Shown: positions 3,669 through 64,000 of the stretch, one piece after another
Numbering within the stretch: position 1 is the stretch's first letter
How the letters are laid out: every line of letters starts with the position of its first letter
DNA from: an uncultured Acidobacteriota bacterium
GTDB taxonomy: Bacteria; Acidobacteriota; Thermoanaerobaculia; Multivoradales; JAHEKO01
NCBI GenBank assembly: GCA_963719055.1
Contig: CAVRAU010000008.1
Span: forward strand, 123,374 to 187,373
Length of the DNA: 64,000 nucleotides
Reading direction: 5' to 3'
Translations under genes and position numbers: made by a program
Notes under the pieces: model-generated
Database searches by the model: none
Seen by the model: only the letters and a program-made list of their open reading frames with translations
What the model was told of the DNA's origin: nothing

Positions 3669-5007
3669 ATGAATATCTGCGTTGTGGGCAGTGGTTATGT
3701 AGGCCTGGTCACGGGCGCGTGCTTGGCCGATTTCGGCATGAAAGTCGTCGGCGTCGACAAGGACGCCGACAAGGTGGAGGCTCTCAAGAGGTGTGAGATC
3801 CCCATCTACGAACCCGGGTCTGCCAACCCTGGTTCGCACCAACATGGATTCCGGTCGGTTGCGATTCACCACCGAGCTGGGCCCCGCTATCGAAGAGGCC
3901 GTCGCCATCTTCATCGCGGTGGGCACACCTTCGCAAGCCGACGGCTCGGCCGACCTGAGCTTCGTGCGCGAAGTCGCCAGATCCATTGGACAACACCTCA
4001 ATGGCTACAAGGTGGTGATTACCAAGAGCACCGTACCCATCGGGACGGGACAAATGGTCCGAGAGATCATCGAGAAAGAACAAACCGGGGCGACCATGAA
4101 TTCGCCGTCGTCAGCAACCCCGAGTTTCTCCGCGAGGGCTCGGCCATCGCCGACTTTCGCCACCCCGACAGGGTCGTCATCGGCAGCACCGATTCCCGTG
4201 CCATCGACATCATGCTCGACATCTACTCGCCACTACGGGTGGCAGACGTACCGTTCGTCGTCACCAATGTCGAGAGCTCGGAGCTCATCAAGTACGCCTC
4301 CAACGGTTTCCTCGCTACCAAGATCTCGTTTATCAACGAGATCGCCAAGCTCAGCGAGATCCCTGGGTGCGGATGTGGAGACAGTGGCCCATGGGATGGG
4401 TCTCGACAAGCGTGTCGGCCCCCTCTTTCTGCATCCGGGACCCGGGTTCGGCGGCTCCTGCTTTCCGAAGGACGCCCGCGCAGTAGCCCAGATCGCCCGT
4501 GACAGAGGAACTGCGTTCAAGATCATGGACGCGGTCTTGGAGGTCAACGAGAACACCAAGAAGCGCATGGTCCGCAAGATCAGCGAGGCCTTTGGCGATC
4601 TCGAGAGCCAAACCGTGGCCGTTCTCGGCCTGTCCTTCAAGCCGGACACCGACGATATCCGCGAGTCACCAGCCCTCGAGATCATCAGCGGTCTGCTCGG
4701 ACAGCGGAGCCCGAGTGCGAGCGTTTCGATCCGGCAGCCATGGACGAGTGTCGTCCCCTCTGGCCGCAGGTAAAATTCTGCGAGACGGCGTATGAGGCGG
4801 CTCAGGAAGCCGATGGACTGGTGATTCTCACCGAATGGAATCAGTTCAGAGCGCTTGGATCTGGACCGACTCCATCAACTCCTCCGACGACCCTTGATCG
4901 TCGATCTGCGGAATATCTATGAACCCGTCAAGATGGCGGCGGCCGGGTTCGAGTACATCTCGGTCGGTCGCCCACCCGTCGGACCCAAGGAGTCGGTTAC
5001 AGCATGA
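3669..5007 (+). CDS. ugd: UDP-glucose 6-dehydrogenase (several frameshifts)
   Basis: [56 protein letters not shown] across successive frames; stop overlaps next ATG. Confidence 0.9.
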
Positions 5008-5950
5008 CGATTTCAGTGGTTACAGGCGGTGCCGGTTTTCTCGGCTCCCACCTCTGCGAGAGGCTCCTGGCCGAAGGTCATCGAGTCACGTGTGTGGACA
5101 ATCTGATAACGGGCAAGCTGGAAAACATCCAGCAGTTGGATGACCATCCGGATTTCGAGTTCATCCACCACGATGTCACGGTCCCGTTCGAAATCGAATC
5201 CGACGTCCACAATGTGCTGCATTTCGCCTCACCCGCCAGTCCGATCGACTATCTGGAGCTGCCCATCCAGACTCTGAAAGTGGGCTCACTCGGTACGCAC
5301 AATACCCTCGGTCTGGCCAAGGCCAAGAGACGCACGCTATCTGCTGGCCTCGACCTCGGAGGTCTATGGCGATCCCCTCATTCATCCCCAGCCCGAGTCC
5401 TACTGGGGAAACGTGAATCCCGTGGGTCCTCGCGGTGTCTATGATGAAGCCAAGCGGTTCGCCGAGGCCATGGTGATGGCGTACCACCGGTACCACGGTC
5501 TGGATACCCGGATCGTCAGGATTTTCAACACTTTTGGTCCCCGTATGCGACTCAAGGACGGTCGGGTCGTTCCCGCCTTCATGCACCAGTCGTTGCAGGG
5601 CAATCCCTTGACGGTTTTCGGAGACGGCCAGCAGACACGTTCCTTCTGTTTCGTCGACGATCTGGTTGAGGGCATCTGGCGGCTCTTGAATACCGACACC
5701 GCTGACCCGGTCAACATCGGCAACCCGCGCGAGATGACGATTCTGCAGTTCGCCGAGGCTATCCTGCAGGCGACCGGCAGCCAGAGCGAAATCGCGTTCG
5801 AGCCCTTGCCGGTGGATGATCCCAAGATCCGGCAACCCGACATTACCCGTGCCAGAGAGGTTCTGAGTTGGGAGCCAGAAGGTTTCCCTGGAGGAGGGTC
5901 TACGTCTGACTGTGGGTTACTTCCAGAACCTTTTGTCGATTTCGACCTAG
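5004..5950 (+). CDS. UDP-glucuronate decarboxylase / UDP-xylose synthase (frameshifts near 5328 and 5880)
   Basis: [43 protein letters not shown] motifs. Confidence 0.88.
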
Positions 5951-5959
5951 GTCGCTTGT

Positions 5960-6220
5960 ATGGAAGATCCCATCAAATCACTGCAGTTTGCCCTCGAGAA
6001 GTATCCCCAACGAGTGGAGCTCGCACCCGTCCAGGATCTGCTCATGGACAGTGCCCGTCAAAACGATCGACGACCCGCCTTCGTCAAGCTCGCGGTACCC
6101 GACGAGGTCGTCAAATCACTGCGTGGCAAGCGCGAAAACCAGGACCTGATCCTGCTCGTGCGAATTCCGGCGGAGGTTTCCGATCGCGTCGATAGCCGAA
6201 TCGTGCTGCCTGGAGAATAG
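5960..6220 (+). CDS. Small hypothetical protein (86 aa)
   Basis: Fills the gap between uxs and yggX on the same strand; plausible composition; no motif recognised. Confidence 0.65.
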
Positions 6221-15730: not shown

Positions 15731-18028
<2,298 letters not shown>

Positions 18029-18321
18029 CGTAAACCTCCCGAATCTGGGGTTGCACCAAATACAGTTCTCGCCTTTGAACAGGTGAGCGATTGAGAACGG
18101 GTTGCGGGTGAGATCCTTTCTGCTGAGAGGACTTCGCGGGTGCCTCGCGACACCCGCAACACAATGATCACTTGGCGGAGATCCCGGCACCACAGGCCAA
18201 CGGGTAGGGCCGCCACCCGCCCTTGTAGGTAGGGGTTTGAACCGACCCTGGATTCTCCTGTACTCTCCTCCGGGCGAGGCGCGAGCCGACCTCACTTCGA
18301 CCTACCTCCAGGAGACCAGAA

Positions 18322-45068: not shown

Positions 45069-46175
45069 ATGTCGCGTCTACTGATTACGGGTGGTGCCGG
45101 ATTCATCGGCGCCAATTTCGTGCACTACTGGCGACATCGGTACCCCGACGATCGCCTCGTGGTTCTCGACGCCCTGACCTACGCCGGCAACATGGCCAAC
45201 CTGGCAGATATCGCTGAGGCCGGAGAGTTTCGGTTCGTTCATGGGGACATCCGGGATCAGGCCCTGGTTGTGGATCTGCTGCGTCAGCATGAGATCGACA
45301 CCATCGTGCACTTTGCCGCGGAGTCCCACGTGGACCGGTCCATTACCGGACCCGATGTCTTTGTGGACGTCAATATTGGCGGTACCCACAGCTTGCTCAA
45401 GGCCGCGCGGGAAGTCTGGCTCTCAGGACCCAACGGTCCACACCAGGGGCATCGCTTCCACCATGTCTCCACGGATGAGGTGTACGGCTCCCTGGAGCCC
45501 GGTGACCCGCCCTTTACCGAATCGACACCGTACGCTCCCAACTCCCCATACGCCGCCAGCAAAGCAGCCTCGGATCATCTGGTGCGGGCATACCAACATA
45601 CCTACGGGCTCGTCACCTCCATCAGCAATTGTTCCAACAACTACGGTCCCTTCCAGTTTCCGGAAAAGCTGATTCCCCTGCTCATCGTGAATCTACTGGA
45701 GGGCAAACCGCTACCCATCTACGGTGACGGTCTCAACGTGCGCGACTGGCTCTTTGTGGAGGACCACTGCCAAGGTATCGATCTCGTCCTCAAGGAAGGC
45801 GTCCCCGGAAGAACCTACAATATCGGCACCAACAACGAGCTCACCAATCTGGATCTCGTCGAGACCCTATGCGGGCTCCTGGACGAGCTCTTCGCGGCAG
45901 AACCGCGTCTGCACGAAAGGTTTCCCACGGCGCCTCCGGCTGCCGACGACAAGTGCGCCAGTGCCATCACTTTCGTCAAGGACCGTCCAGGTCATGATCG
46001 CCGCTATGCCATCGATATGGCCCGGATCACCGATGAGCTGGGATTCCAGCCACGGATCACCTTCGAAGAGGGGCTCCGATCTACCGTCCGCTGGTACCTG
46101 GACAACGAAGAGTGGTGGCGTTCGGTGATGGATGAGTCCTACCGCGACTGGGTCGATCACCACTACAGCGACTGA
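45069..46175 (+). CDS. rfbB: dTDP-glucose 4,6-dehydratase
   Basis: GGAGFIG, DALTYAGN, HFAAESHVDRSI, STDEVYG, DRPGHDRRYA. Confidence 0.96.
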   Translation: MSRLLITGGAGFIGANFVHYWRHRYPDDRLVVLDALTYAGNMANLADIAEAGEFRFVHGDIRDQALVVDLLRQHEIDTIVHFAAESHVDRSITGPDVFVDVNIGGTHSLLKAAREVWLSGPNGPHQGHRFHHVSTDEVYGSLEPGDPPFTESTPYAPNSPYAASKAASDHLVRAYQHTYGLVTSISNCSNNYGPFQFPEKLIPLLIVNLLEGKPLPIYGDGLNVRDWLFVEDHCQGIDLVLKEGVPGRTYNIGTNNELTNLDLVETLCGLLDELFAAEPRLHERFPTAPPAADDKCASAITFVKDRPGHDRRYAIDMARITDELGFQPRITFEEGLRSTVRWYLDNEEWWRSVMDESYRDWVDHHYSD

Positions 46176-47897
46176 CTCGTGACCTGCAGCCGCTGATCGG
46201 CGGAGTACGGGAAGAAGTCGATCACTTCTCCCTGCCGGTTGCGATCCTGTAGGGCCCGCCAGAAAGCGGTGCCGAATAGATCCTGGTGATGCCTGTCGAA
46301 GACCTCACGGAGCTCCCCGCGGAGCTCCAGAAAGGTTGCCAGCTCTTCGGGGAAGACATCATCGTCGGAGACCGAAAACCACGGCTCCGCTGCCAACTCG
46401 TCTTCCGGATGCCGAGCCTGCGGGAACCTGCGGAATCGGCAGCTGCCCAGAGGCGCGATCTCGTCGTAGTCGTAGAACACCACGCGGCCATGACGAGTGA
46501 CGCCGAAGTTCTTGAGCAACATGTCACCGGCAAAGATATTGGCGGCGGCCAAGTCCTTCAAGGTGTATCCCCAATCGACGATGGCCGCTTCCGCTTCCTC
46601 CCGGGAGGCCTCACGGACGTAGATGTCCAGAGGGGTGACGCGGCGTCCGATATAAAGGTGCCGAATGACCACCTCATCGCCGTCGACCTTGACGGTCCGT
46701 CCCGCAGTGTCTTCGAGCTCTGCCAACAACTCGTCGGAGAATCGCTCCTTGGGGAAGGTCAAGTGCTCGAACTCCTGGAAATCGACCAGACGCCCGACCC
46801 GATCGTGTCTGAGGACCTCGCGATACTTCTGCATGACCTCCTCCCGCGTCGTCGATTTGGAAGGCGGAAAGCAATCCCGGATCACCTTGAAGACGAATTG
46901 GAACGACGGCAGGGTGAACACCGACATGACCAGTCCCGGCTGGCCCGGGGCGATGATGAACTGCTCCCCCGACTGCGCCACGAATCGCATGAGATCTCGG
47001 AAGAACTCGGTCTTGCCATGCTTGTGATACCCCAACGAGACATACAGCTCGGCGATCCGCTTTCTGGGTAGGATCGAATGGAGAAAGCCGATCACCTCTC
47101 GCGGACTGGCAATGTCGGCGTGGAAGTACCAGCGAGCAAAGCTGAAAACGATACTGGTCTCCTCTTCGCCGGTGAGAACCGCATCGAGAATCAGCTCGCC
47201 CTCATGGTTGAGAATCGCCAGTACCAGGGGGATCAGCGAATCCCCGCGGCGCGCCCGACCGATGACATAGGCAGCCTTGTTGCGAATGAGCACCGGGCAG
47301 AGCACATCGAGCGCCTCGATCTCGGGCCCGCCAAGGGCCTCCACCACGCGCCGTTCCAACAAGCCGGCCGCCTGCCGCGCGTCGGTCTCCAGATCCCGAA
47401 AAGGGGCCCTGAGCTCGGTATCCTCCAGGATCCGCCGCATCACTCCGGCATCGACGCGATGGACGGCGTAGAGCCGGGCGCTGGACATCTCCCATCCCTT
47501 GAAGGGCAGGGGAAAATCCGCCGAGGCGAAATCGATGGCTGGATCGACGCCCACATGCGGGAACACCCTTCGAGACAGTGAATTGAAGAAGGTCTGGGCC
47601 AACTCGAAATCATCTCGACCCAGGATGGCCAGCGAATAGGCCTCCTTCATCGTGCGCCCAGAACTCCAGGTCGCTGACCTGCTCGCCGAGCTGATCCACC
47701 AGGGCTTCGAAGGCTTCGGTGACGAACTGGGCGTGCAGTCCCAGTCGCTTGACCGTGTCCCGGCGGATACCCTCCCACTCACAGCGCTCGAATCGCTCAC
47801 GCGTGTGCCGGGTGACGGCGCGAAAGCGCGTCTGGTAGTCGTCGAAGCAGCGATGGATGATGTCCGCGCCGCGTAGAGCCTCGCTCGGATAGACCAC
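46163..47897 (-). CDS. aceK: Isocitrate dehydrogenase kinase/phosphatase (frameshift near 47650)
   Basis: ELAQTFFNS, RNKAAY.IGR, APG..G.VM.VF, VFKVIRD, HDRVGRL.D, ANIF.GDML.KNFGVTRHGRVVFYDYDE. Confidence 0.92.
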
Positions 47898-47959
47898 GAC
47901 GGGATACTAGCAACGCCGCGAGGGGTCAGGACCACCCGTTCGGGCAGGCTGAAAGGCCT

Positions 47960-52167: not shown

Positions 52168-54999
52168 CGAGAAGTCCAGCTCGACCACCACGGGATCGTG
52201 GTCGCTGGAGCTGCGAGCGTGGGCGAGATCGGAATTGGCGTGCACGATATCGATTCGCGCCCGCGCCTGCGCCAGTAGGGGTTGGCTCAGCAGAATGTGA
52301 TCCAGCAGCTGCGAATCACCCCGATAGTTGAACGAGTAGCGATCCTCGGGTGGCAACAGAAAGACCAGGTTCTCCAGCGGTGTCTCGGTCAAGATTCTCA
52401 ACGGCGTGCGGAACTCGTGATCGTTGAAATCGCCAAGCACAACCACTCCGGCAGCCGGATCTAAAGAGAGCAGTTCGGCCACGAAGTCCGACACCAGGCG
52501 GGCCTGCTGAGAGCGCTGGTCTTCGCTATGTCGGACGGGAGGTTGGGAATCACCGAAAACCGAATCATCCGAGCCCTTCGAGGACCAGTGGTTGTTGACC
52601 ACGAAGAGCTTCCGGACACCAAACTGGAACTCACCTACCAGCGGCTTGCGGCTGGCTGAGAAGCCCCTCGTCTCATCACCGTTGAAGGCCGGAGCTTGCG
52701 ACGCAATTCGACCCGGGTTCGCGGATAGGCCGACCCCGCCTTCGTCCGCCACCAACCGCACCTCGTCGAGGGGTCCCGCCGATCCCCTGTCCACCAGACT
52801 CACCCGACCGGGATTGAACAGGAAAGCCAACCGGATATTGGCCCCGGGCTGCCCACCATCACCATGGTCCACCGGATCGATCTGTCGATACTCATAGTCC
52901 GGTCCTCCGCTATCGGCAACGAGACCGATCAGGCGCTCCAGTGTTACGACAGCAGCGACGGTGCCATCATCCGTCGGACCCGTATCGTCCTGAATCTCCT
53001 GCAAAGCGACAATATCCGGACCCTGCAAGGAGCCGGTCAGGGCGTCGGCGAGCGCTCGGTAGTGAGCCTCGTCACTGCGGGCACTCAAGTTCAACACATT
53101 GAACGTCGCAATCGTAAGACGGCTCTTGCCCGGCACCAGGTCGGTGATCTCTGGTTGACGATCGGCGGAGAGCAACGGCGGCACCGGTGTCTCGACATAG
53201 AGTCGATAGGTACCGAACCGATAGCCGACGATGCCCGCCAAGCTCCCTGCGAATCTGTCGCCTACATTGACATCCGGAGGCCGACCTGAGCCGGAGAAGT
53301 CCACGGTCAGACGCTCTGGATTCAGATCACCCGGCCTGAGCAGCAATCCGCCGACGCGGCTCGCAGCGGCAGACGTCTGACCGCTGGCATCGACAAAGAT
53401 CTCTCCGAAGCGATTCGTCGGCCCGACCACGACGGCATCTGCCAGGACGACCCGCATCCCCTCCACGCTCTCCCAGAAATCGAGGCCATCGAACTGCGGC
53501 TCGAAGATCTGCAGACCATCGTTGTCCACGACCTCTGCCGGCACATGCACACCTTCACGCCCAACGGCAAGCGGCAGTGAACGAAACTCACCACTTTCGA
53601 GGACTTCGAGACTCGAGGCCCAGATCGTTGTCGTGCTCAGCTCACCTGGCCGCTGCGTCTCTACGACCCGCCCATCGACTGTCACGCGGTCTCCGACAGG
53701 TGCCGCCGTCGTCTCTTCGCCATGGAGCACCAGAACCCCACGAGAGGTAGCCACCACGCCGTCATCGGTCATCGACTCCATCCAGAACCCGTTGTCCTTG
53801 CCGGGATAGTTACCGGTAATCACTCCTTCGACGCCCCGCACCCACCGGCCCTCCAACGGCGACCGATGGTCGGCACCCTGGATTCCCTCCACATCGACCG
53901 GCTGGTCCCCAAGGGCGAAGGCGAGAAGCTGAGTGGTCTGGACCAAAGGATTGAAATTGTCATCCGAGACCAGGATCAGGGTCCGGCGACCATCTTGCAG
54001 CGGCGGACCGAAGGTCATCCCTTCCACATTGTCCAGATAGATCCCGAGGTCCGCCAGATTCAGCAGCCGCTCCTTCTGAACCGCGACAACTCTTTCGAGG
54101 TCCACCTTCCGCAGGGCCGGAAAGGTCTGCAAATCAGTCGCACCTGCAAGTCGAAGGAGAAAGATCTGGATGGTGTTTCCCGTACCCATGGAGAACGATC
54201 TCTCCATGGCCAGCAGGTTGTGCTCGTCAAGAGCCAACAGATCCACAAGACCGTTCACCTCGAGGCCATCAGGGACACTCGCGGACGTCGCTACAGGCTC
54301 TGCCCAATACAGGAACTCGGCCACCATCTTGCCGCTCTCCAGGTCGAACTTCAGCAGGCGGCTGGGGCTGGCGACTCCGAGGGCCGCTCCAGGCCCGTCT
54401 TGGACAAGAGCATTCTCCAGTGCCGTGAAGAGGAACCGCCCATCCGGTGTCACGCTCAGACTCTCGAATCCGAGATTGTGACGGGGCCCAGAAGAGCCGT
54501 CTGGCTCGGGCCGGTAGCGGTCAGGAAGCGGCAACTCCCCTAGATACCGTCCGTCCCGAGCGAAATGCCGTACAAACGGTGCCACCTGCTCTCTCACTTG
54601 ACCTTCCGACGAGATATACAGGCTGCCATCCGGGTGGAGCCCAATGCCTTCCGGATCCACAGTCATGCGGGGCATCGGTCCACCCTCGGGGGACTGGATC
54701 ACGGTCATGCTGACCACTTCGGCGCCGTCGTCCGCCAGGCGACCATCGCCGAGATCGATCTCGACGCCATAGAAACGTGCCGGCCCACGAGCGCTCGGAT
54801 CGTCCGTCACGACGTAGTAGAGATCTCGCGACGCATCGAACGTGATTCCGGAAAGACCCCCCACAGGAGTTTCCTCGACCCGCGTTCCCCCGGGAATCCG
54901 CGCCTGTCCGAGAAACTCCATCTGTGTAATCGAAGCGGTACTGGGCTCACCCATCACGAGCAAGCCAAGAATCGCTAGCAGAGGGGACAGAAGCTTCAT
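52156..54999 (-). CDS. Secreted fusion: phytase-like esterase propeller + OB folds + EEP nuclease/phosphatase
   Basis: GGLSG, D.EGI, N.GFESL, DNVEG, VSDDNFN; IQGADHRSP; IATFNVLNL, ALQEIQD, LGDFND, LDHIL, SDHDP. Confidence 0.88.
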   Translation of the reverse strand: MKLLSPLLAILGLLVMGEPSTASITQMEFLGQARIPGGTRVEETPVGGLSGITFDASRDLYYVVTDDPSARGPARFYGVEIDLGDGRLADDGAEVVSMTVIQSPEGGPMPRMTVDPEGIGLHPDGSLYISSEGQVREQVAPFVRHFARDGRYLGELPLPDRYRPEPDGSSGPRHNLGFESLSVTPDGRFLFTALENALVQDGPGAALGVASPSRLLKFDLESGKMVAEFLYWAEPVATSASVPDGLEVNGLVDLLALDEHNLLAMERSFSMGTGNTIQIFLLRLAGATDLQTFPALRKVDLERVVAVQKERLLNLADLGIYLDNVEGMTFGPPLQDGRRTLILVSDDNFNPLVQTTQLLAFALGDQPVDVEGIQGADHRSPLEGRWVRGVEGVITGNYPGKDNGFWMESMTDDGVVATSRGVLVLHGEETTAAPVGDRVTVDGRVVETQRPGELSTTTIWASSLEVLESGEFRSLPLAVGREGVHVPAEVVDNDGLQIFEPQFDGLDFWESVEGMRVVLADAVVVGPTNRFGEIFVDASGQTSAAASRVGGLLLRPGDLNPERLTVDFSGSGRPPDVNVGDRFAGSLAGIVGYRFGTYRLYVETPVPPLLSADRQPEITDLVPGKSRLTIATFNVLNLSARSDEAHYRALADALTGSLQGPDIVALQEIQDDTGPTDDGTVAAVVTLERLIGLVADSGGPDYEYRQIDPVDHGDGGQPGANIRLAFLFNPGRVSLVDRGSAGPLDEVRLVADEGGVGLSANPGRIASQAPAFNGDETRGFSASRKPLVGEFQFGVRKLFVVNNHWSSKGSDDSVFGDSQPPVRHSEDQRSQQARLVSDFVAELLSLDPAAGVVVLGDFNDHEFRTPLRILTETPLENLVFLLPPEDRYSFNYRGDSQLLDHILLSQPLLAQARARIDIVHANSDLAHARSSSDHDPVVVELDFSSRD

Positions 55000-55535
55000 C
55001 CTTGAAACTTATCCGACTGCGGCCACAAGACCAATCCCTCGAAGACCTGCACGCCTCGGTCATCGAATCGCTCAGCGATCTCTTCCAGGGTGAGACCGAC
55101 CACCGGATGCAAGATCCGCGGCGCTACATCCGCCAGGGGAATCGCCACATGGGCTCGTTCGAGAATTTCCGGATCGGGGATTTCCAAACTCGAGGCGGCC
55201 TCATGGACCACTCGCTGCCCGTAAAGAGAGATATCGATATCGAGGGTTCGTGGAGCGTTGCGATCTTCAGACCGTACCCGACCCAATTCCTTCTCGAGAG
55301 GCCTCAGAACCCGGTACTTGAGCGGCCCAGGTCCGTGATCGTACCGAATCTCCAACGCCGCATTCAGAAAGACCGGGCCAGTGCTGCCACCTACCGGTAG
55401 GGTCTCATAGACCCGCGAAGCCGCGACGATTTGCACTCGACGGGCCAGAAGCCTCGTGGCGGCGAGCAGATTTCGATCCGGCCCGATGTTCGAGCCCAAG
55501 GACAGCAGAACGGGTTCAAGGGGATGGACAGACAA
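54996..55535 (-). CDS. folK: 2-amino-4-hydroxy-6-hydroxymethyldihydropteridine diphosphokinase
   Basis: LSLGSNI, S.VYET.P, FLNAA, E..LGR, PRTLDIDI. Confidence 0.92.
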   Translation of the reverse strand: MSVHPLEPVLLSLGSNIGPDRNLLAATRLLARRVQIVAASRVYETLPVGGSTGPVFLNAALEIRYDHGPGPLKYRVLRPLEKELGRVRSEDRNAPRTLDIDISLYGQRVVHEAASSLEIPDPEILERAHVAIPLADVAPRILHPVVGLTLEEIAERFDDRGVQVFEGLVLWPQSDKFQG

Positions 55536-55539
55536 CGAT

Positions 55540-55908
55540 TCAGTGAAAATCGGCTCGGCTGCGTTCGATCTCGACACCGACGGACTGGGCAAAACGCAGA
55601 GCTCCCGGTTTTTCCACTCTCACAGTCACTTTGTTGGCGCCGAAATCCAGGACGGCGATCCGGGCAATATCCGATGCCAGGGCCTCCACCAGGAACCGCG
55701 AGGAGCTCTCCACATGCGCGACGATGGCTTTGGTCAGAGATCGATAGTTGAGCGAGTCCTCGACGTCATCGGAAAGGGCTGCGGCACGCACATCGATGTC
55801 GAGAATCATATTGATCAGGATGTCCTGCTGCTTCTCCCGCTCCCAATCATTCAAGCCGATGATGCCTCGTACCAGCAGGTCACGGATCAGGATCTTGTCG
55901 GTTGCCAT
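55540..55908 (-). CDS. folB: Dihydroneopterin aldolase / triphosphate epimerase
   Basis: D.I.IRDL..RGIIG...WER..KQ, NY, LVEALA, VEKPGALRFA.SVGV.I.R. Confidence 0.88.
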   Translation of the reverse strand: MATDKILIRDLLVRGIIGLNDWEREKQQDILINMILDIDVRAAALSDDVEDSLNYRSLTKAIVAHVESSSRFLVEALASDIARIAVLDFGANKVTVRVEKPGALRFAQSVGVEIERSRADFH

Positions 55909-55942
55909 CGGTCCACTCTCTCCTCTCGACCGGCCCAGCATC

Positions 55943-56716
55943 TCACAGTCGACGATGGCCGGCACCCACTAGATGCTCGCCACCATCCACGCAGATCGCC
56001 TCGCCGGTGATGAAGTCGTTGGCGGCAAGAAACACGACGGTGGCACCCACTTCGGCCGGCAAGCCGGGACGGGCCAGCGGTAGCTCGCTCACCAGACTCA
56101 GCCAGTCCGGGTCTTCGACGTCGGCTCCTGGAGGCGGCAGGATAGGTCCGGGAATGACCGAGTTGACGCGAATCTGTGGGGCCAACTCGCGAGCGGCGAC
56201 TGTGGTCAGATGCAAGAGCCCGGCCTTGCTGACTCCGTGGTGGGCAAATCCCGGCCAGGCGAATTTGCCGCTGAGGTCGGCCACATTCACCACCACCGCC
56301 GGCACCCTCTCCTGTCGCGCTGCCGCCCGCATCAACGGCACCGCCGCTCGCAGGCAGACAAACGGTGCGCGCAGGTTCACCTCCATCGCCGCGTCCCATT
56401 CTGCGACGTCGATCTCTGGCAAGGCCTGCTTGCGAAAACTGGCCGCGCTGTTGACCAGGATATCCAGCCTGCCGAAACGCTCCTCCACCGCGGCGAACAT
56501 CTGTTCGATCTGCGCGACCTCTGCCAGATCGGCCTGCAAACAGACGGTCTCAGTTCCTCGCCGGCGCAAATCGTCGGCGGTGGCTTCGGCCTCGAGGCGC
56601 GAATGGCCGTAGTGGATGATCACGCGACACCCCGCCTCTGCCAGGGATTCCGTGATCCCCTTACCCAGACGGCGGCCTCCACCGGTGATCAGCGCGACAC
56701 GTTCGGTCAGCTTCAT
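55943..56716 (-). CDS. Pteridine reductase FolM/PTR1-like SDR
   Basis: TGGGRRLG, IHY..S, LVNSAA.F, SKAGL, ITG..I.VDGG; upstream of folB-folK. Confidence 0.82.
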   Translation of the reverse strand: MKLTERVALITGGGRRLGKGITESLAEAGCRVIIHYGHSRLEAEATADDLRRRGTETVCLQADLAEVAQIEQMFAAVEERFGRLDILVNSAASFRKQALPEIDVAEWDAAMEVNLRAPFVCLRAAVPLMRAAARQERVPAVVVNVADLSGKFAWPGFAHHGVSKAGLLHLTTVAARELAPQIRVNSVIPGPILPPPGADVEDPDWLSLVSELPLARPGLPAEVGATVVFLAANDFITGEAICVDGGEHLVGAGHRRL

Positions 56717-56750
56717 CCTACCCTCATCATCGGCACTCCCGATCCGTCTG

Positions 56751-57074
56751 TCAATCGGCGATCGGGTGGCGAAGTTGGACGATCCGGTTGTAGATCCAGG
56801 CGGTGAGCCAGCCGGCGGCACCCCCGAGAAGCGCGCCATAGACAAAACCCAACAAGGCCCCTGACCAAGTTACCGAGTAGCCCGGCAGGTAGTTCCGCAG
56901 CAGTGCCAGGTGCTGGCCGACATTGGGGCCGCCGCGAAGGACGAGCCACACTGTCGCCACGAGGAGGCCACTGCCGGTGAGGAGACCGCAAACAATGGCC
57001 ATGATCCCAGCCCTCAACCGGGCAATGGCAGTGGCGATGATCTTCAGCTCGCGCGAGTCCGCTTGGCGGGTCAT
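56751..57074 (-). CDS. Small membrane protein paralogous to the C-terminal domain of the upstream flavoprotein
   Basis: Hydrophobic helices; L.LL..Y..GY.VTW.G..LG; ATGA overlap with upstream gene. Confidence 0.78.
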   Translation of the reverse strand: MTRQADSRELKIIATAIARLRAGIMAIVCGLLTGSGLLVATVWLVLRGGPNVGQHLALLRNYLPGYSVTWSGALLGFVYGALLGGAAGWLTAWIYNRIVQLRHPIAD

Positions 57075-58885
57075 GTGTCGTGTGTCTCCAGTGGATCCAT
57101 GATTTCAGCCAGCTCCAGTTCTTGCAGCACCGACCCTTCGTAGGCCCCTATCAACAGGTTGAGGGTCTTGGCCATCAGGATACCGAGAAAGAATCCCCCG
57201 ACCGTCGCCTCCGCGGTTCCCAGCATGGCGCCCGTCCAAGAGACTTCAAAACCCAGAAAATAGGCTCCCAGCAGCGAGAGGTTGGGACCCAGGGGCACCC
57301 CCCCCTTCAACAGCAACACCGCTGTCGCCAGAAAGAGTCCCAGACCCATCACCGCACCGAGGGACACTGCCATCGCCACCGGATCGTAGCGCGCGAAGGC
57401 ACCTCGGAGAAGCTCCTCCAACTCGACGTCCGCGACGGGCTGTGGAACCTGTCTGTCACCGGTGGGCTTCTCGACAGCCCGGCCCTCTTCCAGGTATTCG
57501 CTTTCTACATTCACCGCCCAGACATCGTGCTGGGCACCAAGGATGTTCTGGGCAGCGCAGATTCCCGACAGCATGGAGTGATCCTGGTTGTTGTAGCGAT
57601 GCTGGCCGTTCCTGCCAATGACCTGCAGGTTCGAGAACCCAAAGAGGTAGTCGCGAATCGCATCCACAGATTCACGGTAGTGCCCGTCATAGACCGGATA
57701 GGCCTTGGGCATCCTCACCACGGTGCCGTCCTCCACCTCCCCTGGCTCGACAAGTCCCAGGGTCGCCATCTCCCGAATGCCCAGCTTCACCAGATCCGCA
57801 TCCGAGGCCGTCCAGAGCTCGTCGCCCACGTTGACGAAGTACTCGAGACCCAGCGACGTCTTGCTGGAGTCGGGAACCATCTCCGGACTCCAATTCTTGA
57901 AGTTTTGAATGCGTCCCATCACCACTTCGGGGGAATGGATGTAGATCCAGTTGTCCGGAAAGACATCCTCGCGGTCCACGATCAGCACCACGATCAAGAA
58001 ATCTCTGTAACTGAGCCGATCGGCGGCGGCCCGTATCTCGGCCGGTGGGGCGGGTTCCAAGCATCGAACGAGGTCGCTGAGGGGCATGGACGAGATGACG
58101 TGATCTGCGGCCACCCGCTCGCGCCCACCATCCCTCTTGGCAACGCTCACTCCTTGTACCCGGCCGTTCTCGTGACGAATCTCCTCCACCCGAGTCCCCA
58201 ATTCGATCCTCGCCCCATTCGCCTCCAGGCGGTCCCGACACCGCTCCCACATCATTCCAGGACCGAACCTCGGGTAGTGGAAGCGGTCGATGAGTGTGCT
58301 GATGATCTCGCCACTGCCCCGGGAGCCGATCAGGGAATTGCGAACCGCCTTGAGCAGATCGAGATTCTTGATCCGCTGGGCCGCCCAATCGGCACTGATC
58401 TCGGAGCAGGGTATGCCCCAGACCTTTTCGGTGTAGGTCTTGAAGAAGATCTCGTACAACCGGTGCCCGAACCGATTGGAGACCCACTCCTCGAAACTCC
58501 GCTCCTCGGGGTGCGGCAGGAGCCGTGCCCGCAGATAGCTCAATCCCACTCGGGCCGCTTCCCAGGGCCCCAGCCCTCGGAGAGCGTTCATCGGCTTCAG
58601 CGGATAATCGAAGAACCGGTCCTGGTAAAAGATGCGCGAAAGACGCGGCCGCTCTAGAAAATCCTCTCCGAGAGTCTCTTCCCAAAAGGCCTGGATCTCA
58701 GGCACCTTGGTAAAGAATCGATGCCCTCCGATGTCGAATCGGTATCCCTGATACCGCACCGTACGAGAGATGCCGCCAACGATCTCGTCTTGTTCGAAGG
58801 TTCGAGATTCGCGACCCACTCGCGACAGCTCATAGGCCGCGGCCAGCCCCGCGGGTCCACCACCGATGATGACGATTTCGCTCAT
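57071..58885 (-). CDS. FAD-dependent oxidoreductase (UDP-galactopyranose mutase / HemY-like fold) with C-terminal membrane domain
   Basis: IIGGGPAGL, VGG.SRT, DIGGHRFF.K, KAYPVY, GRNG.H.YNNQDHSM. Confidence 0.87.
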   Translation of the reverse strand: MSEIVIIGGGPAGLAAAYELSRVGRESRTFEQDEIVGGISRTVRYQGYRFDIGGHRFFTKVPEIQAFWEETLGEDFLERPRLSRIFYQDRFFDYPLKPMNALRGLGPWEAARVGLSYLRARLLPHPEERSFEEWVSNRFGHRLYEIFFKTYTEKVWGIPCSEISADWAAQRIKNLDLLKAVRNSLIGSRGSGEIISTLIDRFHYPRFGPGMMWERCRDRLEANGARIELGTRVEEIRHENGRVQGVSVAKRDGGRERVAADHVISSMPLSDLVRCLEPAPPAEIRAAADRLSYRDFLIVVLIVDREDVFPDNWIYIHSPEVVMGRIQNFKNWSPEMVPDSSKTSLGLEYFVNVGDELWTASDADLVKLGIREMATLGLVEPGEVEDGTVVRMPKAYPVYDGHYRESVDAIRDYLFGFSNLQVIGRNGQHRYNNQDHSMLSGICAAQNILGAQHDVWAVNVESEYLEEGRAVEKPTGDRQVPQPVADVELEELLRGAFARYDPVAMAVSLGAVMGLGLFLATAVLLLKGGVPLGPNLSLLGAYFLGFEVSWTGAMLGTAEATVGGFFLGILMAKTLNLLIGAYEGSVLQELELAEIMDPLETHDT

Positions 58886-58972
58886 GATGCGAAGCCATCC
58901 TAACCGAGACTCGGACCTACTGGCGACAGATCGACATCGTGCTGGCGGATTTGGCGATAGAGTCTCTCGGTC

Positions 58973-60400
58973 GTGACGACTCAAGACAGACCGGTGACGG
59001 CCTCGCCGCGGGAGTCGATCCTCGAGAGCTTCACTGCGCTCGGCGGCGGAGTGATCCTATCTCGCCTCGTCGCGTTTATCGGCACCGCCTACCTGGCCCG
59101 CACTCTGGGCACCTACGCCTTCGGCATCGTCGGTCTCGCCACCGCGGTGACCTTCTTTCTGGGTCTCGCCCTACGGATGGGTTTCGAGCCGATTGGCGCG
59201 CGAGAAGTGGCTCGGGACCCGGAATCGGCGACCAGTCTCGCGGCGGGCGCAGGACTTCTCCGACTCGCCCTGGCGTTGGTGGGCCTGGGAATCCTGGCCC
59301 TCGTCGGCCTGTTCCTGGATAAACCTCCAGAAGTTCGGCAAGTCTTCGTCCTGACGGGGCTTCTGCTGCTGCCATGGGCTCTGGATCTTCGCTGGGTCTA
59401 CCGAGGTCTGGCGCGAAATCGCTGGGTCGGCATCAGCATGATTCTGGCGCAAGTCGTCCATGTGACGCTGCTCCTGCTCGTGGTCAAGAGCCCCGCAGAC
59501 GTCATCTGGGCACCGCTGGCGCTGGTCCTGGGAGAGATGGTGGCGGTCGTCTTCTTGTCTCTTCCCCTGCTGCGGAGCTGGACAGGCCGAGCCGACTGGC
59601 GACGGGCCAGGGGTGTCCTTCGATCTTCAGGCTTTCTTGTGTCCTCGGGTCTGCTGGGCGCCCTGATCCGGACCACCGACATTGTCCTCATTGCACTGCT
59701 CCTGGGCGAATCACAGGTCGGTGTCTTCTCCGCCGCCTACCGGATCTGTTTTCTGCTCCTGGCGATCGCCGTCTCATTGCACTCGGCCTACCAACCCCAG
59801 TTGGCTCGAGTCCCCAACCATGATCTTCAGGCGATGGAGAAATTGACGGAGCGGGCCTTGGAGTCCGCGGGCAGTTTGGCCATTCCGTTCGTGGTGGGAG
59901 GCTGGATCCTGGCCACGCCCATACTGAGCCACCTCTTCGGACCCGAGTTCGCGGTCGGCCGGGACGCCTTTCGACTTCTCCTCGTGGCCATGGGACTCTT
60001 CTTTCTGCACGGGGTTTTCTTTCAACTCCTGGTGGTGTTCGATCGCACTCGTCCGGAGTTGGCTCTTCGCGGCACCGCGGCGGGTCTCAATCTGATTCTC
60101 AATCTATTGCTGATTCCGCGATTCGGTATCGCGGGCGCCGCTGTCGCCACCGTCCTGGCGGAGCTGGTCATCCTGGTCTGGCGATGGCTCGTCTGCCGTC
60201 AGCTCGGGGTCACGGTTCACAGCCGGTTCCTGTTGAAGCCGTTGGGGGCCGCATCGGGAATGGCCATCGTCATGCTCTGGATGGAGCCACGCGTTGCCTG
60301 GTTCCTGACCTTCGTCGTGGGCGGTCTCTCCTATGTCATCCTTCTACTTCTGCTACGAGGGTTTCCACGGGATCTGCGCCCTCGAGCCCTGACGCGCTGA
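58973..60400 (+). CDS. Wzx/MOP-family oligosaccharide flippase
   Basis: About 12-14 TM helices, YLAR.LG...FG, G.FSAAYR, LIP.FGI.GAA.AT..AE. Confidence 0.85.
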   Translation: MTTQDRPVTASPRESILESFTALGGGVILSRLVAFIGTAYLARTLGTYAFGIVGLATAVTFFLGLALRMGFEPIGAREVARDPESATSLAAGAGLLRLALALVGLGILALVGLFLDKPPEVRQVFVLTGLLLLPWALDLRWVYRGLARNRWVGISMILAQVVHVTLLLLVVKSPADVIWAPLALVLGEMVAVVFLSLPLLRSWTGRADWRRARGVLRSSGFLVSSGLLGALIRTTDIVLIALLLGESQVGVFSAAYRICFLLLAIAVSLHSAYQPQLARVPNHDLQAMEKLTERALESAGSLAIPFVVGGWILATPILSHLFGPEFAVGRDAFRLLLVAMGLFFLHGVFFQLLVVFDRTRPELALRGTAAGLNLILNLLLIPRFGIAGAAVATVLAELVILVWRWLVCRQLGVTVHSRFLLKPLGAASGMAIVMLWMEPRVAWFLTFVVGGLSYVILLLLLRGFPRDLRPRALTR

Positions 60401-60405
60401 TCACT

Positions 60406-61422
60406 CTAGGACCGAGCGCGTCCGTGGCGACTCCAGAAGAGAACATGTCCAATCAGGAAGGCCACTGCACAGTTGAGCTGATACAACCAGTGCAGGACGA
60501 TGCCTCCCATCAGGAGCTTGACGCCGCCTTTTCTGGCCAGCAGTCGATAGAACCCCGCATTGAGCCACAGCAGGACGAGTCCTGCGCCCAGTGAGATCAG
60601 CAGCGTCCGCGGCCAGGCCAGGGCCAGCACCAGTCCGATCCCCACGAGCAGGGACAACACGACACTCCATCGCCCGCGAAAATCCAGATTCAGTCCCTTC
60701 TGGGAGGGCCCTTCTTCAAGGAGCAGAAGAGTCCAGGGGATGCCTCGGTCCACAAGATCGCTGCGCAGCACTCCGCCCAGGGTCCAGGCTTTGTGGTGTT
60801 TGACCTGTACGTCCTTGGCGAGTCGGATCTGACCCCCGATCTCTACCAAGCGATGCCCCAGTTCGATGTCCTCGATACAGGGTCGCCCATAGCGCTCAGT
60901 GTCGAATCCGCCCAGTTGCTCGAACACCGATCTCCGAATCGCGCCGCAACCGGCCCAGAAGGTCGTCGCTTGTTCGCTCCCCTGTTGGTGAACGAAGTGA
61001 TGCTGCAGATTCTTGTATCTGGCCACGAGCCCCGGGGCACTGGGAGCCTCGTCATAGGAGCCGAACAACGCTTCGAGTTGGGGCTCTCGGCGGAGGATCT
61101 CGACCGCTCGAGCCAGAGTATCCGGGCCCGCACTGCAATCCGCATCGATAAAGAACAGCACCTCGCCGTGAGCCTGGCGGGCGCCCAGGTTCCGAGCGGC
61201 TCCCGGACCTTGCCGACCCGCGGTCTGGAGCACCTTGGCTCCAGCTGCGGCAGCAATTTCCCTGGACCCATCGGTCGAACCGTCGTCTACCACGATCAGC
61301 TCCCAGTCGGTGAAGCTGGAACCACGGAGGTCCTGCAGGCAGGTACCCAACGTATCGGCCCCATCGAGAACGGGAACTACGACCGTCAGGTAGGGAGCTG
61401 CAGGGCTACGACTGTCAACCAT
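60406..61422 (-). CDS. GT2 glycosyltransferase with C-terminal TM helices
   Basis: VVDDGSTD, G.AARN.GA, FIDAD, GGFD, IEDIELG. Confidence 0.9.
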   Translation of the reverse strand: MVDSRSPAAPYLTVVVPVLDGADTLGTCLQDLRGSSFTDWELIVVDDGSTDGSREIAAAAGAKVLQTAGRQGPGAARNLGARQAHGEVLFFIDADCSAGPDTLARAVEILRREPQLEALFGSYDEAPSAPGLVARYKNLQHHFVHQQGSEQATTFWAGCGAIRRSVFEQLGGFDTERYGRPCIEDIELGHRLVEIGGQIRLAKDVQVKHHKAWTLGGVLRSDLVDRGIPWTLLLLEEGPSQKGLNLDFRGRWSVVLSLLVGIGLVLALAWPRTLLISLGAGLVLLWLNAGFYRLLARKGGVKLLMGGIVLHWLYQLNCAVAFLIGHVLFWSRHGRARS

Positions 61423-61499
61423 GATTTTCTTCGCGGGCCAGACCTGCGACTTACTTCAGGTGGGATAGTCTAAGCCAGCCTCGGGGGGAACTGAAGACC

Positions 61500-62426
61500 A
61501 TGATCCATGCACGACCCTGGCCCGGATTCCTGTATTGCCTTCTCGCCAGCTGCATTCTTCTGTTTGCCCAAGGGAGAGTTGTCAGCGCTGAGGATACTGA
61601 AACCTACTCGGCAGATATCGCAGAATGGCATCGTCACCGAGCCGAGAGCCTGACTGCGGAGAACGGCTGGTTGTCTCTGATCGGTCTCTTCTGGCTCGCA
61701 GAAGGTGTCAATACACTCGGTAGCGATCCCGACAGCGATCTGATTCTGCCGGACTCCAAGGCACCCTCGAGGGTGGCCACCTTGACCCTGAAAGGTGATC
61801 AGATCCAGTCTCGAGGTGGCAACGGGTGTGGCCATCACCCATGAAGGCATGCGGATCTCCGCCTTCGATCTGGCCGTGGACACCTCGGGTAGCCCGACGA
61901 TCTTGGATCTGGGGGATCTCCAGTTCTACGTGATCGAGCGATCAGGACGGTACGGCCTCCGGGTCCGAGACCGCAACCATCCAGCCCGTTTCGGGTTTCC
62001 CGGCATCGAAACCTTTCCCATCGACGCAAGATGGCGGATCACCGGCCGCCTCGAGGCCTACGACCCACCCCGAACCATTCCCATCCCCGATGTTCTCGGC
62101 CAGGTGAACCACCTGGAGTCACCCGGCACCACGGTCTTCGACATCAGGAACCAGAGCTACCGGCTGGACGCACTACCCGGACCGGACGGCGAGCCTCTAC
62201 CTGATCTTCGCGGATCAGACTTCAGGCCGAGAGACCTACGGCGGCGGGCGATTCCTCTACAGCGAACCCGTAGCCGAAGACGGCAGCGTCGTCCTCGACT
62301 TCAACAAGTCCTACAACCCGCCCTGTGCCTTCACCGACTACGCGACCTGCCCACTGCCCCCAAGGCAGAACAAGCTACCGGTGCGCATCGAAGCCGGCGA
62401 AAAGAAGCTACGGCAGGCACCGCTAG
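61500..62426 (+). CDS. Secreted DUF1684-family protein (frameshifts near 61810, 62195, 62405)
   Basis: GWLSL.GL.WL; IF.D.T...TYGGGRFLY; [21 protein letters not shown] across frames. Confidence 0.82.
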
Positions 62427-62464
62427 ACCGGGCTGGCCCGGCCTGGATCCTCAATTTACGGAAT

Positions 62465-62496
62465 CAAAACGAGAATCGCGGCCTTGCGGCCGCGAT
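62465..62496 (-). terminator. Terminator hairpin with GCAA tetraloop
   Basis: Minus strand atcgcggcc-GCAA-ggccgcgat followed by tctcgttttg. Confidence 0.6.
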
Positions 62497-62700
62497 CAAG
62501 AGGTCTCCAGAGGAGACTCGATAAGGAAAAGGATGGGAGGTTCCTAAGATGATGTGATATGTGTAGAATTTACCCCGGTTTTTCCGGGGACTGGGGTAGG
62601 CCAGTCAGTGAGTTGGAGATTATTAAAGTCTCCATTAGAGTCGGTTGGAATAACTCGTAGAAAGGGGAACCTCCCAGTCAATGCTCTTTCGAGCTTCCTT
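62465..62700 (-). ncRNA. Candidate ~235-nt structured small RNA
   Basis: Bounded by a sigma70-like promoter and a terminator; GAAA hairpin; 11-bp long-range stem; several internal hairpins; no convincing ORF. Confidence 0.5.
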
Positions 62701-62706
62701 GCGGGA

Positions 62707-62746
62707 ACTATAACAGCTTGTGACACTTTTCACAAGCCCCTATAGA
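62707..62746. promoter_or_regulatory. Bidirectional sigma70-like promoter centred on a TTGTGA-N6-TCACAA palindrome (Rex/CRP-like operator)
   Basis: Plus: TTGTGA(62718)-N17-TATAGA(62741). Minus: TTGTGA(62735)-N17-TATAGT(62712), with a TGn extension. Confidence 0.65.
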
Positions 62747-62760
62747 GAGACTTCTCAAAC

Positions 62761-63681
62761 ATGACCGACGACACCACGAAAACAAGCTCTCTCGCTGCTA
62801 CCGAGCCGTCTGCCCCACCCAGAAGAAAGATCAAGAAACTCGAGGTCATGGTGGCCGATGTAGTTCGCGAGACGCCGGACTCCGCCACCTTGATCCTGTT
62901 TACCGGCAACGATCAGCTCGAGTACCAACCCGGGCATTTCCTGACCATCGATCCCCATCAGTTTCCCGCTCTCGAACGCTTTATCGAGTATTTCGAGGAG
63001 ATGAAGGGCAAGCGCGAGCCCGCTCGTGCCTATTCCATGGCGTCAGCGCCTCATGAGAAGTATCTGGCCATCACGGTCAAGGAGGAGTACTACATCTCTG
63101 GGCGCACCAAGTACCCCCCTCTGCTCTCCCCCCTGTTGGTCTGGAGAATACAGCCCGGCACCCGCATGGTCGTCACTGGATTTGGTGGGCCCTACGTCCT
63201 GCCAGACGACATCGAATCCCGGACCGATCATCTCGTCCATGTCTGCGCCGGTTCGGGAATCGTTCCCAACTGGAGCATCCTCAAACATGCTCTCGCCGAG
63301 AATCTCGAGATCCGTCACACGCTGGTCTATGGCAACAAGACCTTCGACGACATCATCTTTCGCAGCCAACTGGAGGCTCTCCAGCGCCAGCATCCAGACA
63401 GAATCCGGGTGGTGCACGCCTTGAGCCGTGAGCAGGACGTCCGTCGGTATGGCGAGTCTTTTCAGCCGGGGAGGGTTGATCGAGCCGCCATCCAATCAGC
63501 GATCCCCGACCCCGCCGCCGCCGTGGTCTTCGCCTGCGGTCCGGGAATCGGCAAATGGGAGAGATTGGCGGCCAAGGAATCCGGTACCGAGCCGCAACCG
63601 CGGTTCCTGGAGTCGGCGCTCGCGGCCCTGGAGGACATCGGCGTGCCCAAGGCACAGATCCATCGCGAGAGCTACGGCTGA
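62761..63681 (+). CDS. Stand-alone FNR-like FAD/NAD(P)-binding oxidoreductase
   Basis: PG.FLT, RAYSMAS, AGSGI.P, L.YGN, FACGP, C-terminal HRESYG; no ferredoxin domain. Confidence 0.85.
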   Translation: MTDDTTKTSSLAATEPSAPPRRKIKKLEVMVADVVRETPDSATLILFTGNDQLEYQPGHFLTIDPHQFPALERFIEYFEEMKGKREPARAYSMASAPHEKYLAITVKEEYYISGRTKYPPLLSPLLVWRIQPGTRMVVTGFGGPYVLPDDIESRTDHLVHVCAGSGIVPNWSILKHALAENLEIRHTLVYGNKTFDDIIFRSQLEALQRQHPDRIRVVHALSREQDVRRYGESFQPGRVDRAAIQSAIPDPAAAVVFACGPGIGKWERLAAKESGTEPQPRFLESALAALEDIGVPKAQIHRESYG

Positions 63682-63704
63682 GAACTGCCGACTCGCAGTG
63701 GATC

Positions 63705-64000
63705 CTACTGGAGGTCCGGAGGTCTTTGGAGGCCGCCGTGATGACTCTCGCCTGGGCTCACTGGGATGAGACTGCCCGGTGGTCGACGGACGATGGCATC
63801 TCGATACGAGTTGCGAGTCCCGGAATTCGGGTGGCGCTCCTCGCTTCCGTATCCCTGACGATGATGCTCGGGTCGCAGGGGCGGTCGCGGCCTAGGACCC
63901 GGCGCCTCGATCAACGGATACCCACCCCAGAGCGGAATGCCGTAGCGGACAACTATGGCCTCTTCCCGCATTCGACGACTCTCTTCGGCCTGCGCCAGCT
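63705..64000 (-). CDS. 3' end of a hypothetical protein entering from outside the window
   Basis: Open frame to the window edge with a Pro/Arg-rich tail; no motif recognised. Confidence 0.35.
   Translation of the reverse strand, partial: LAQAEESRRMREEAIVVRYGIPLWGGYPLIEAPGPRPRPPLRPEHHRQGYGSEERHPNSGTRNSYRDAIVRRPPGSLIPVSPGESHHGGLQRPPDLQ

Follow-up and report, generated by a model that had tools for sequence, protein, structure and literature searches.

The small RNA (sRNA) RoxS is described as directly repressed by Rex, as carrying four C-rich regions for pairing, and as adjusting the NAD+/NADH balance; for the C-rich regions of RoxS/RsaE the same source reports pairing, demonstrated or presumed, with G-rich ribosome-binding sites (PMC5419742). 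The operator consensus given for Rex is TTGTGAA-N4-TTCACAA (PMC2883068), and the regulator is described as active in a Gram-negative sulfate reducer too, and hence as not confined to Gram-positive bacteria (PMC4045070). Our searches of the open literature brought up no Rex regulon in Acidobacteria and no described sRNA of Acidobacteriota. Here we analyse a stretch of 64,000 nucleotides (nt) from an uncultured Acidobacteriota bacterium (contig CAVRAU010000008.1, positions 123,374 to 187,373; hereafter the window), and within it the interval 62466-62700 of the minus strand, which lies between a DUF1684-type gene and the gene of an FNR-type oxidoreductase. The likeliest of the readings weighed here, to which we give an even chance, is that this interval encodes a lineage-restricted non-coding sRNA of ~180-235 nt that is repressed by a Rex-like regulator and pairs in trans through C-rich seeds. 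The same literature searches returned nothing on the element itself, DUF1684 included.

The element is conserved beyond the window. With the neighbouring oxidoreductase as query, a single scan of GTDB species genomes gave 13 loci, the source genome not being among them; the best of these come from metagenome-assembled genomes that are 71% identical and labelled Thermoanaerobaculia/Acidobacteria. Homologs of the element are present in two of the 13, L006 (nhmmer E-value 8e-25) and L007 (6e-21), and the comparative statements made below rest on these three sequences. The arrangement is the same in both: the DUF1684 gene is followed by the element, which stands divergently to the oxidoreductase gene, with both flanking genes on the plus strand and the element on the minus strand in all three copies. 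Window and L006/L007 share 70% identity over the RNA core, while the four-fold degenerate sites of the gene next to it reach 38%; for L006 compared with L007 these values are 94% (core) and 72% (four-fold sites). Core identity far above that of four-fold sites implies that the element is under purifying selection, and the homolog search that the initial annotation of this DNA had proposed as a check of its sRNA prediction yields two homologs conserved above neutral sites. When the window and the 13 loci (220,848 bases) were searched with an nhmmer profile (E<=100) and with the covariance model R1 (E<=10), only the three input sequences were recovered, the next best match being the window's own plus strand (E 0.24). 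Searches of plasmid and phage collections with blastn gave no match.

Conservation extends to the predicted promoter. The minus-strand site TTGTGA-N17-TATAGT is the sole promoter-like site within 61400-64000 and carries an extended TG one base 5' of its -10 hexamer in the window. By motif match, the architecture TTGTGA-N17-(TG)n-TAnnnT is retained on the minus strand in all three copies: the -10 hexamer reads TATAGT in the window, TATGAT in L006 and TATTAT in L007, with T1, A2 and T6 constant. The 6 nt between the -10 and the +1 vary between copies, and conservation sets in 7 nt past the -10, at the predicted +1, with the block AAG(G/A)AAGCUCGAAAGAGC. The coincidence of this spacing with the onset of conservation makes ~A62700 the likely start of the RNA; the counterparts of this predicted start lie at ~9912 in L006 and ~4255 in L007. 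The claim that the sRNA has its own promoter is supported by these motif matches; the companion claim, that it has its own terminator, has support in the window, where a strong predicted GCAA-capped intrinsic terminator of 10 pairs (62497-62474, minus strand) is followed by CUCGUUUUGA, and none was found downstream in L006 or L007.

What the initial annotation overlooked is that the -35 hexamer is one half of a conserved palindromic operator of the Rex/CRP type. The palindrome matches the Rex consensus with one mismatch in the window, and exact copies of TTGTGAA-N4-TTCACAA occupy the homologous place in L006 and L007. Its half-sites are invariant and its spacer varies among the three copies, which is the pattern expected of a dimer-binding site. 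At up to one mismatch it is the single such site in the 64 kb, and none of 100 shuffles yields one. The palindrome is centred ~26 nt upstream of the predicted start and spans the -35 hexamer into the spacer, a position of the repressor type. The same sequence contains a CRP-type core, TGTGA-N6-TCACA, which occurs once in the window and recurs at the homologous position in L006 and L007; the flanking T/A and inner A/T positions would favour Rex over CRP, and sequence alone cannot separate the two. The promoter is probably repressed by a Rex-like regulator, Rex being a repressor that senses NADH/NAD+.

Several further observations concern the operator region. In the window, the mirror image of the palindrome gives rise to a plus-strand TTGTGA-N17-TATAGA (-10 at 62741-62746) from which transcription of the oxidoreductase gene would begin ~8 nt ahead of the ATG, giving an almost leaderless mRNA; this TATAGA is found in the window only and is not kept in L006 or L007. 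These two loci have a G+C-rich hairpin between the operator and the oxidoreductase ATG (L006 9971-9986, minus strand; L007 ~4315-4330), which on the minus strand is terminator-like, AGCCUGCCGGCGGGCU followed by UUUUGAUCCU, and on the plus strand falls within the oxidoreductase leader. The window is without this hairpin, and its operator-to-ATG spacer measures 25 nt. Exact TGTGA-N6-TCACA palindromes are also seen ~2 kb downstream of the oxidoreductase start in L009 (3168-3183), L011 (2119-2134) and L012 (12066-12081), where the oxidoreductases are 51-55% identical and the palindromes are poorer fits to the Rex consensus; L009 and L012 carry the label uncultured bacterium, and L011 that of Candidatus Neomarinimicrobiota.

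The element resembles no known RNA family and shares no reading frame between its copies. Rfam 15 at gathering thresholds gave no match in the whole window and none in L006 or L007, in agreement with the earlier statement that the element was not recognised as 6S, SRP, tmRNA, RNase P or a riboswitch; FnrS and Acido-1 are further families without a match. At E<=10, the region 62350-62850 has two sub-threshold matches, both to the terminator hairpin, STnc50 (22.1 bits against a threshold of 55) and CC0196 (20.6 against 35), and these are generic terminator resemblance; RsaE, the Rfam family of RoxS/RsaE, is not among them. Readings as a retron, 6S, Y RNA or tracrRNA-like RNA were dropped, the partner genes being absent from the open reading frames (ORFs) of the window and Rfam giving no match. 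The window has minus-strand ORFs of 60 and 21 codons and a plus-strand ORF of 63 codons at the element. The 21-codon ORF had been pointed out previously and exists at 62570-62635 (minus strand); it has no ATG in L006 or L007. The 60-codon ORF begins upstream of the +1, inside the promoter, and is interrupted in L007. Indels of 1 and 2 nt separate the copies, one of them even the 94%-identical L006 and L007, and a conserved ORF is ruled out because these indels break the frame between copies. With no ORF common to the copies, the earlier non-coding interpretation holds, and the element is non-coding and conserved above the neutral rate.

The predicted fold of the window RNA is unusually stable. 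Over 241 nt the minus strand reaches -88.3 kcal/mol, whereas dinucleotide shuffles lie at -57.2 +/- 4.6 (z -6.70), none of the 200 being as low. The plus strand reaches -95.1 (z -5.11), so that stability alone cannot choose the strand. The consensus structure comprises 27 pairs: P1 with its GAAA loop, the 10 core pairs of P2, a 3-bp P3, the GAGA/UCUC core of P4, and P5 (coordinates in Table 1). All 27 pairs are standard in all three sequences, a proportion that falls to 36-65% once the partners are slid by 1-3 columns, and the pairing probability of P1, P2 and P5 is ~1 throughout. Of these pairs 22 never vary, two change on one side (G-C to G.U, in P4 of L006) and one is compensatory (G-C to A-U, in P3). 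Variation being scarce, the fold is consistent with the data, not proven by them. The window copy adds an 11th pair to P2, U62676-A62534, making a perfect 11-bp stem (62676-62666 / 62544-62534), and forms P4 from UGGAGA/UCUCCA (62634-62629 / 62619-62614). Two hairpins, GACUGG/CCAGUC (62606-62601 / 62594-62589) and GUCUCC/GGAGAC (62517-62512 / 62508-62503), are found in the window copy only and, like the terminator, are not conserved; L006 and L007 have instead a P2 extended by 5 bp and the hairpin CUUUC-G(G/U)AA-GAAAG. The loop of P5 is AAAAA in the window and CAGCUGA in the other two copies. This CAGCUGA loop (L006 9788-9794 and L007 ~4131-4137, minus strand) holds the self-complementary CAGCUG, which could permit loop-loop dimerisation. 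Inspection by eye, with no formal test, found neither an 11-nt tetraloop-receptor motif nor a plus-strand G-quadruplex.

The minus strand is favoured by the promoter, the window terminator, the GNRA loops, the G.U pairs of L006 and the core z-scores. The latter are -5.1, -4.3 and -4.7 on the minus strand (window, L006, L007) against -3.8, -3.4 and -2.6 on the plus strand, the minus strand being better in each of the three copies. GNRA loops are read on the minus strand only: GAAA in P1, GGAA or GUAA in the additional hairpin of L006 and L007, and GCAA in the terminator, where the plus strand reads UUUC, UUCC and UUGC. P4 of L006, GAGA/UUUU, contains two G.U pairs that are valid on the minus strand and become A.C mismatches on the plus strand. 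The elements listed in the initial annotation are all found at their positions on the minus strand, in a gap that is indeed locally AT-richer (G+C content 0.47 at 62500-62799, against 0.61-0.645 at 62000-62499), and its remark that the GNRA loops read correctly only on this strand extends to the GGAA/GUAA loops of the homologs. Its structural model survives in P1, P2, the P4 core and P5, and is confined to the window for GACUGG/CCAGUC, GUCUCC/GGAGAC and the terminator. Of the C/U-rich segments that it had likened to anti-Shine-Dalgarno seeds, CCUUUC and the tract at 62586..62601 are conserved, and the tail has a different sequence in L006 and L007.

Table 1. Predicted features of the candidate sRNA and its promoter region, in window coordinates.
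Feature	Position	Strand	Description
18-bp palindrome TTGTGAA-AAGT-GTCACAA (read on the minus strand)	62718..62735	.	Rex operator consensus with 1 mismatch
sigma-70-type promoter	62707..62735	-	-35 TTGTGA 62735-62730; 17-nt spacer; extended -10 TG 62715-62714; -10 TATAGT 62712-62707
Predicted transcript, ~235 nt	62466..62700	-	Start predicted; 3' end set in the U-tract behind the terminator
P1, 5' hairpin GCUC-GAAA-GAGC	62683..62694	-	GNRA loop; invariant in 3/3 copies; pairing probability ~1 in all
P2, 5' strand GGGAGGUUCC	62666..62675	-	Partner 62535-62544; 10/10 pairs invariant in 3/3 copies
CCUUUC	62660..62665	-	Invariant; directly 3' of the P2 5' strand; unpaired probability 1.00/0.23/0.19 (window/L006/L007)
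P4 hairpin, GAGA/UCUC core	62614..62634	-	In all three copies; loops differ
C-rich tract GCC(U/C)ACCCCA(G/U)UCCCC	62586..62601	-	Conserved; unpaired probability 0.67/0.95/0.99 (window/L006/L007)
P5 hairpin CCCCGG/CCGGGG	62573..62589	-	62589-62584 / 62578-62573; stem invariant
P2, 3' strand GGAACCUCCC	62535..62544	-	Closes the multi-helix core
C/U-rich tail UCCUUUUCCUUAU	62521..62533	-	After P2; L006/L007 equally C/U-rich, sequence different
Window-specific 3' module	62464..62517	-	GUCUCC-UCU-GGAGAC hairpin, GCAA-capped terminator and U-tract; without counterpart in L006/L007

The predicted fold leaves several C-rich regions unpaired: CCUUUC, GCCNACCCCANUCCCC and the C/U-rich tail. CCUUUC is predicted to be unpaired in the window and is paired within the CUUUC-GNRA-GAAAG hairpin in L006 and L007. 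The likeliest candidate for a seed under the modelled structure is the tract at 62586..62601, part of which pairs in the non-conserved GACUGG/CCAGUC hairpin of the window. The mechanism that we propose runs as follows. The sRNA would be transcribed divergently from the gene of the FNR-type flavin oxidoreductase, from a promoter that a Rex-like dimer would occlude at low NADH and release as NADH rises. The transcript would fold into the 5' GNRA hairpin P1 and a core closed by the 10-11-bp P2 and enclosing P4 and P5, a fold that would expose the invariant C-rich single strand. This tract, together with the other C/U-rich segments, might pair with G-rich ribosome-binding regions of distant mRNAs and so adjust redox metabolism. 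The divergent oxidoreductase has the operator in common with the sRNA, and the two may be co-regulated. If so, their common operator would let a single NADH signal induce the enzyme and the post-transcriptional regulator together.

A number of findings weigh against or limit this proposal. Of the remaining loci, those that extend far enough upstream lack the element, among them L001 and L002, which are closer Thermoanaerobaculia, and with L006 and L007 94% alike the comparison effectively covers two lineages. As the operator half-site, the -35 hexamer TTGTGA cannot count as independent evidence of a promoter. Intrinsic terminators downstream of the element were found in one of the three copies, and the RNA of L006 and L007, having none, would run antisense into the 3' end of the DUF1684 gene unless stopped otherwise. 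A regulator of the CRP/FNR family could act instead of Rex, because the palindrome fits the CRP core too. No rex or CRP/FNR-type gene is present among the 56 ORFs of the window or the 48 ORFs of L001-L008, which are small fractions of their genomes. The covariation that the initial annotation had named as a check is thin: with three sequences, one compensatory pair among 27 is not significant, and scores at least as high come from 174 of 500 shuffles. The margin over shuffles is modest when L006 and L007 are folded with their flanks (z -2.2 and -2.6). The plus strand, rich in G, has the lower absolute energy, both for the consensus (-56.4 against -48.9) and for the single minimum free energies (-64 to -74 against -59 to -61). 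Full-length RNAduplex predictions against 43 putative start regions of the window, taken at the starts of the longest ORFs, were uninformative, with only long, meaningless duplexes returned.

The strongest competing explanation retains a structured minus-strand RNA and denies it a base-pairing role: the transcript would be a protein-binding RNA, a sponge or some other non-coding RNA, whose helices and C-rich strands would serve protein or tertiary contacts. The invariance of P1, P2, P5 and the GAAA loop, with variable loops and linkers, would fit recognition of structure or by a protein as well as it fits seeds, and a multi-helix junction of ~180-235 nt exceeds the size of most seed-type sRNAs. 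We nevertheless consider a function of this kind unlikely: there is no likeness to any such Rfam family at E<=10, there are no repeated GGA or similar motifs, and the narrow spread of the element, in 3 of the 14 sequences searched, is more sRNA-like than housekeeping.

In a second explanation, DUF1684 and the oxidoreductase would be transcribed together on the plus strand across the spacer, and the minus-strand RNA, perfectly complementary to this stretch, or the collision of its promoter with the read-through, would act in cis by uncoupling or silencing the downstream gene. In all three copies the genes on either side lie on the plus strand, the promoter scan gave the oxidoreductase of L006 and L007 no sigma-70-like promoter on that strand, and the minus-strand RNA of these loci would overlap the DUF1684 3' end; such antisense interference gains some weight from this combination of an absent plus-strand promoter and an absent minus-strand terminator. 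In the window, the last DUF1684 frame reaches across the sRNA terminator. Interference, on the other hand, needs neither a conserved fold nor GNRA loops. The window has its mirror-image plus-strand promoter just upstream of the oxidoreductase ATG, and the predicted RNA ends ~40-60 nt from the DUF1684 coding end. In L001 and L002 neither DUF1684 nor the element accompanies the oxidoreductase ortholog, which implies that these orthologs have promoters of their own. Taken together, we regard antisense interference as decidedly unlikely.

The plus strand itself might carry a cis-regulatory RNA, as the 3' untranslated region of DUF1684 or as a part of the oxidoreductase mRNA, either intercistronic or in the leader. 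Its z-scores and consensus energy given above, and its location directly upstream of a plus-strand gene, speak for such an element; its loops are not GNRA, P4 of L006 acquires A.C mismatches, the conserved promoter points the other way, as does the terminator of the window, and no riboswitch or leader family matches. Moreover, the operator and promoter lie between the element and the ATG, 25 nt away in the window, so that the element would lie upstream of the local promoter. A plus-strand RNA is accordingly improbable. There is a slighter chance again that no functional RNA exists and that conservation reflects DNA-level regulatory sites for the oxidoreductase, DUF1684 or both: the best-conserved block does include a clear palindrome of the protein-binding type, yet ~180 nt conserved as nested perfect helices up to 130 nt apart go far beyond the needs of an operator, and conservation sets in at the predicted +1 of a conserved minus-strand promoter. 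Finally, a small protein, from the 60-aa or 21-aa minus-strand ORF or the 63-aa plus-strand ORF, is very unlikely on the sequence comparison, for although L006 and L007 have plus-strand ORFs of 63-65 aa with ALSSFL..I.AC.SFHK in common, the common peptide stretches coincide with invariant nucleotides of P1, promoter and operator, the frame is shifted by the indels, the minus-strand frame starts inside the promoter, and there is no Pfam match.

The genes around the element bear on the quality of the sequence. The oxidoreductase gene (62761-63681, plus strand) has a Pfam NAD_binding_1 domain and no NCBIfam equivalog, the top match scoring 79.5 bits against a cut-off of 420.8. The DUF1684 gene (61500-62524, plus strand) uses three frames in comparison with its intact L006 ortholog, with shifts near 61809 and 62197, and its last frame overshoots the stop of the orthologs by 37 codons, to 62524, crossing the terminator of the sRNA; the gene is a pseudogene, unless the shifts are indel errors of the assembly. 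Further genes of the window, at 3793-4773 (plus strand), 5004-5444 and 5413-6195 (plus strand), appear split or truncated: an NAD-dependent epimerase/dehydratase is divided over two overlapping ORFs (Pfam profile positions 2-105 and 135-240), and a UDP-glucose dehydrogenase lacks the beginning of the N-domain and the greater part of the C-domain. That the epimerase, the UDP-glucose dehydrogenase and DUF1684 are all broken suggests an indel-prone assembly, and with several frame-shifted genes in the window, single-base indels within the RNA itself are possible.

Synteny reaches beyond the immediate neighbours. The order HPPK (folate synthesis), short-chain dehydrogenase, DUF1684, element and oxidoreductase is seen in the window (54996-56845, minus strand), L006 (6948-8680, minus strand) and L007 (1297-2256), with an insert between the dehydrogenase and DUF1684 in the window only (57071-61422) that encodes an amine oxidase, a polysaccharide flippase and a family-2 glycosyltransferase. 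Elsewhere the window encodes the AceK isocitrate dehydrogenase kinase/phosphatase (46163-47935, minus strand) and a malic enzyme fused to a phosphotransacetylase-like domain (15731-18295, minus strand), both regulators of central metabolism and possibly relevant to a redox-linked sRNA.

The candidate shares features with several described systems. FnrS is an enterobacterial sRNA activated by FNR, a regulator of the CRP/FNR family. Like it, the candidate has a promoter palindrome suited to a redox- or oxygen-responsive dimeric regulator, with TGTGA-N6-TCACA inside; it differs in having no Rfam match and in the position of its site, which is centred at ~-26.5 and thus repressor-like, where the activator position of CRP/FNR-type sites is -41.5. 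The CcsR or 'cuckoo' RNAs of Alphaproteobacteria are C-rich anti-Shine-Dalgarno sRNAs, and they too have C/U-rich motifs in unpaired regions of a structured sRNA. The motifs of the candidate, in contrast, lie in single strands between helices and not in repeated hairpin loops, and the candidate has neither repeats nor an Rfam match. The promoters of Rex regulons (ROP sites) provide the likeness for the operator, an 18-bp inverted repeat TTGTGAA-N4-TTCACAA overlapping the promoter, with Rex being putative here.

The nearest likeness is to RoxS/RsaE as described, and would lie in a stand-alone sRNA gene, a Rex-type operator in the promoter region, C-rich unpaired regions, and a link to redox and central metabolism. 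The differences are that the candidate has no RsaE match at E<=10, is about twice as long and is closed by a long-range helix; that its operator lies over the -35 and spacer, whereas that of RoxS is placed just downstream of the start (PMC5419742); and that it belongs to a phylum other than Firmicutes, with a terminator in one of three copies. The candidate is therefore analogous to RoxS/RsaE, not a member of the RsaE family. We tentatively raise the further possibility, doubtful as it is, that a C-rich riboregulator gated by Rex, and thereby by NADH/NAD+, arose independently in Acidobacteriota (Thermoanaerobaculia) and is convergent with RoxS/RsaE, in which case the combination of a redox repressor with an anti-Shine-Dalgarno sRNA would extend beyond Firmicutes. 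If the candidate is real, Thermoanaerobaculia gain a concrete sRNA candidate with a predicted start, regulator site and seed, in a phylum of abundant and mostly uncultivated bacteria. Should the link to Rex fail, it would be one more lineage-restricted conserved intergenic element; should it hold, Rex-controlled C-rich sRNAs would be a recurrent solution to re-balancing NADH/NAD+ and not a peculiarity of Firmicutes.

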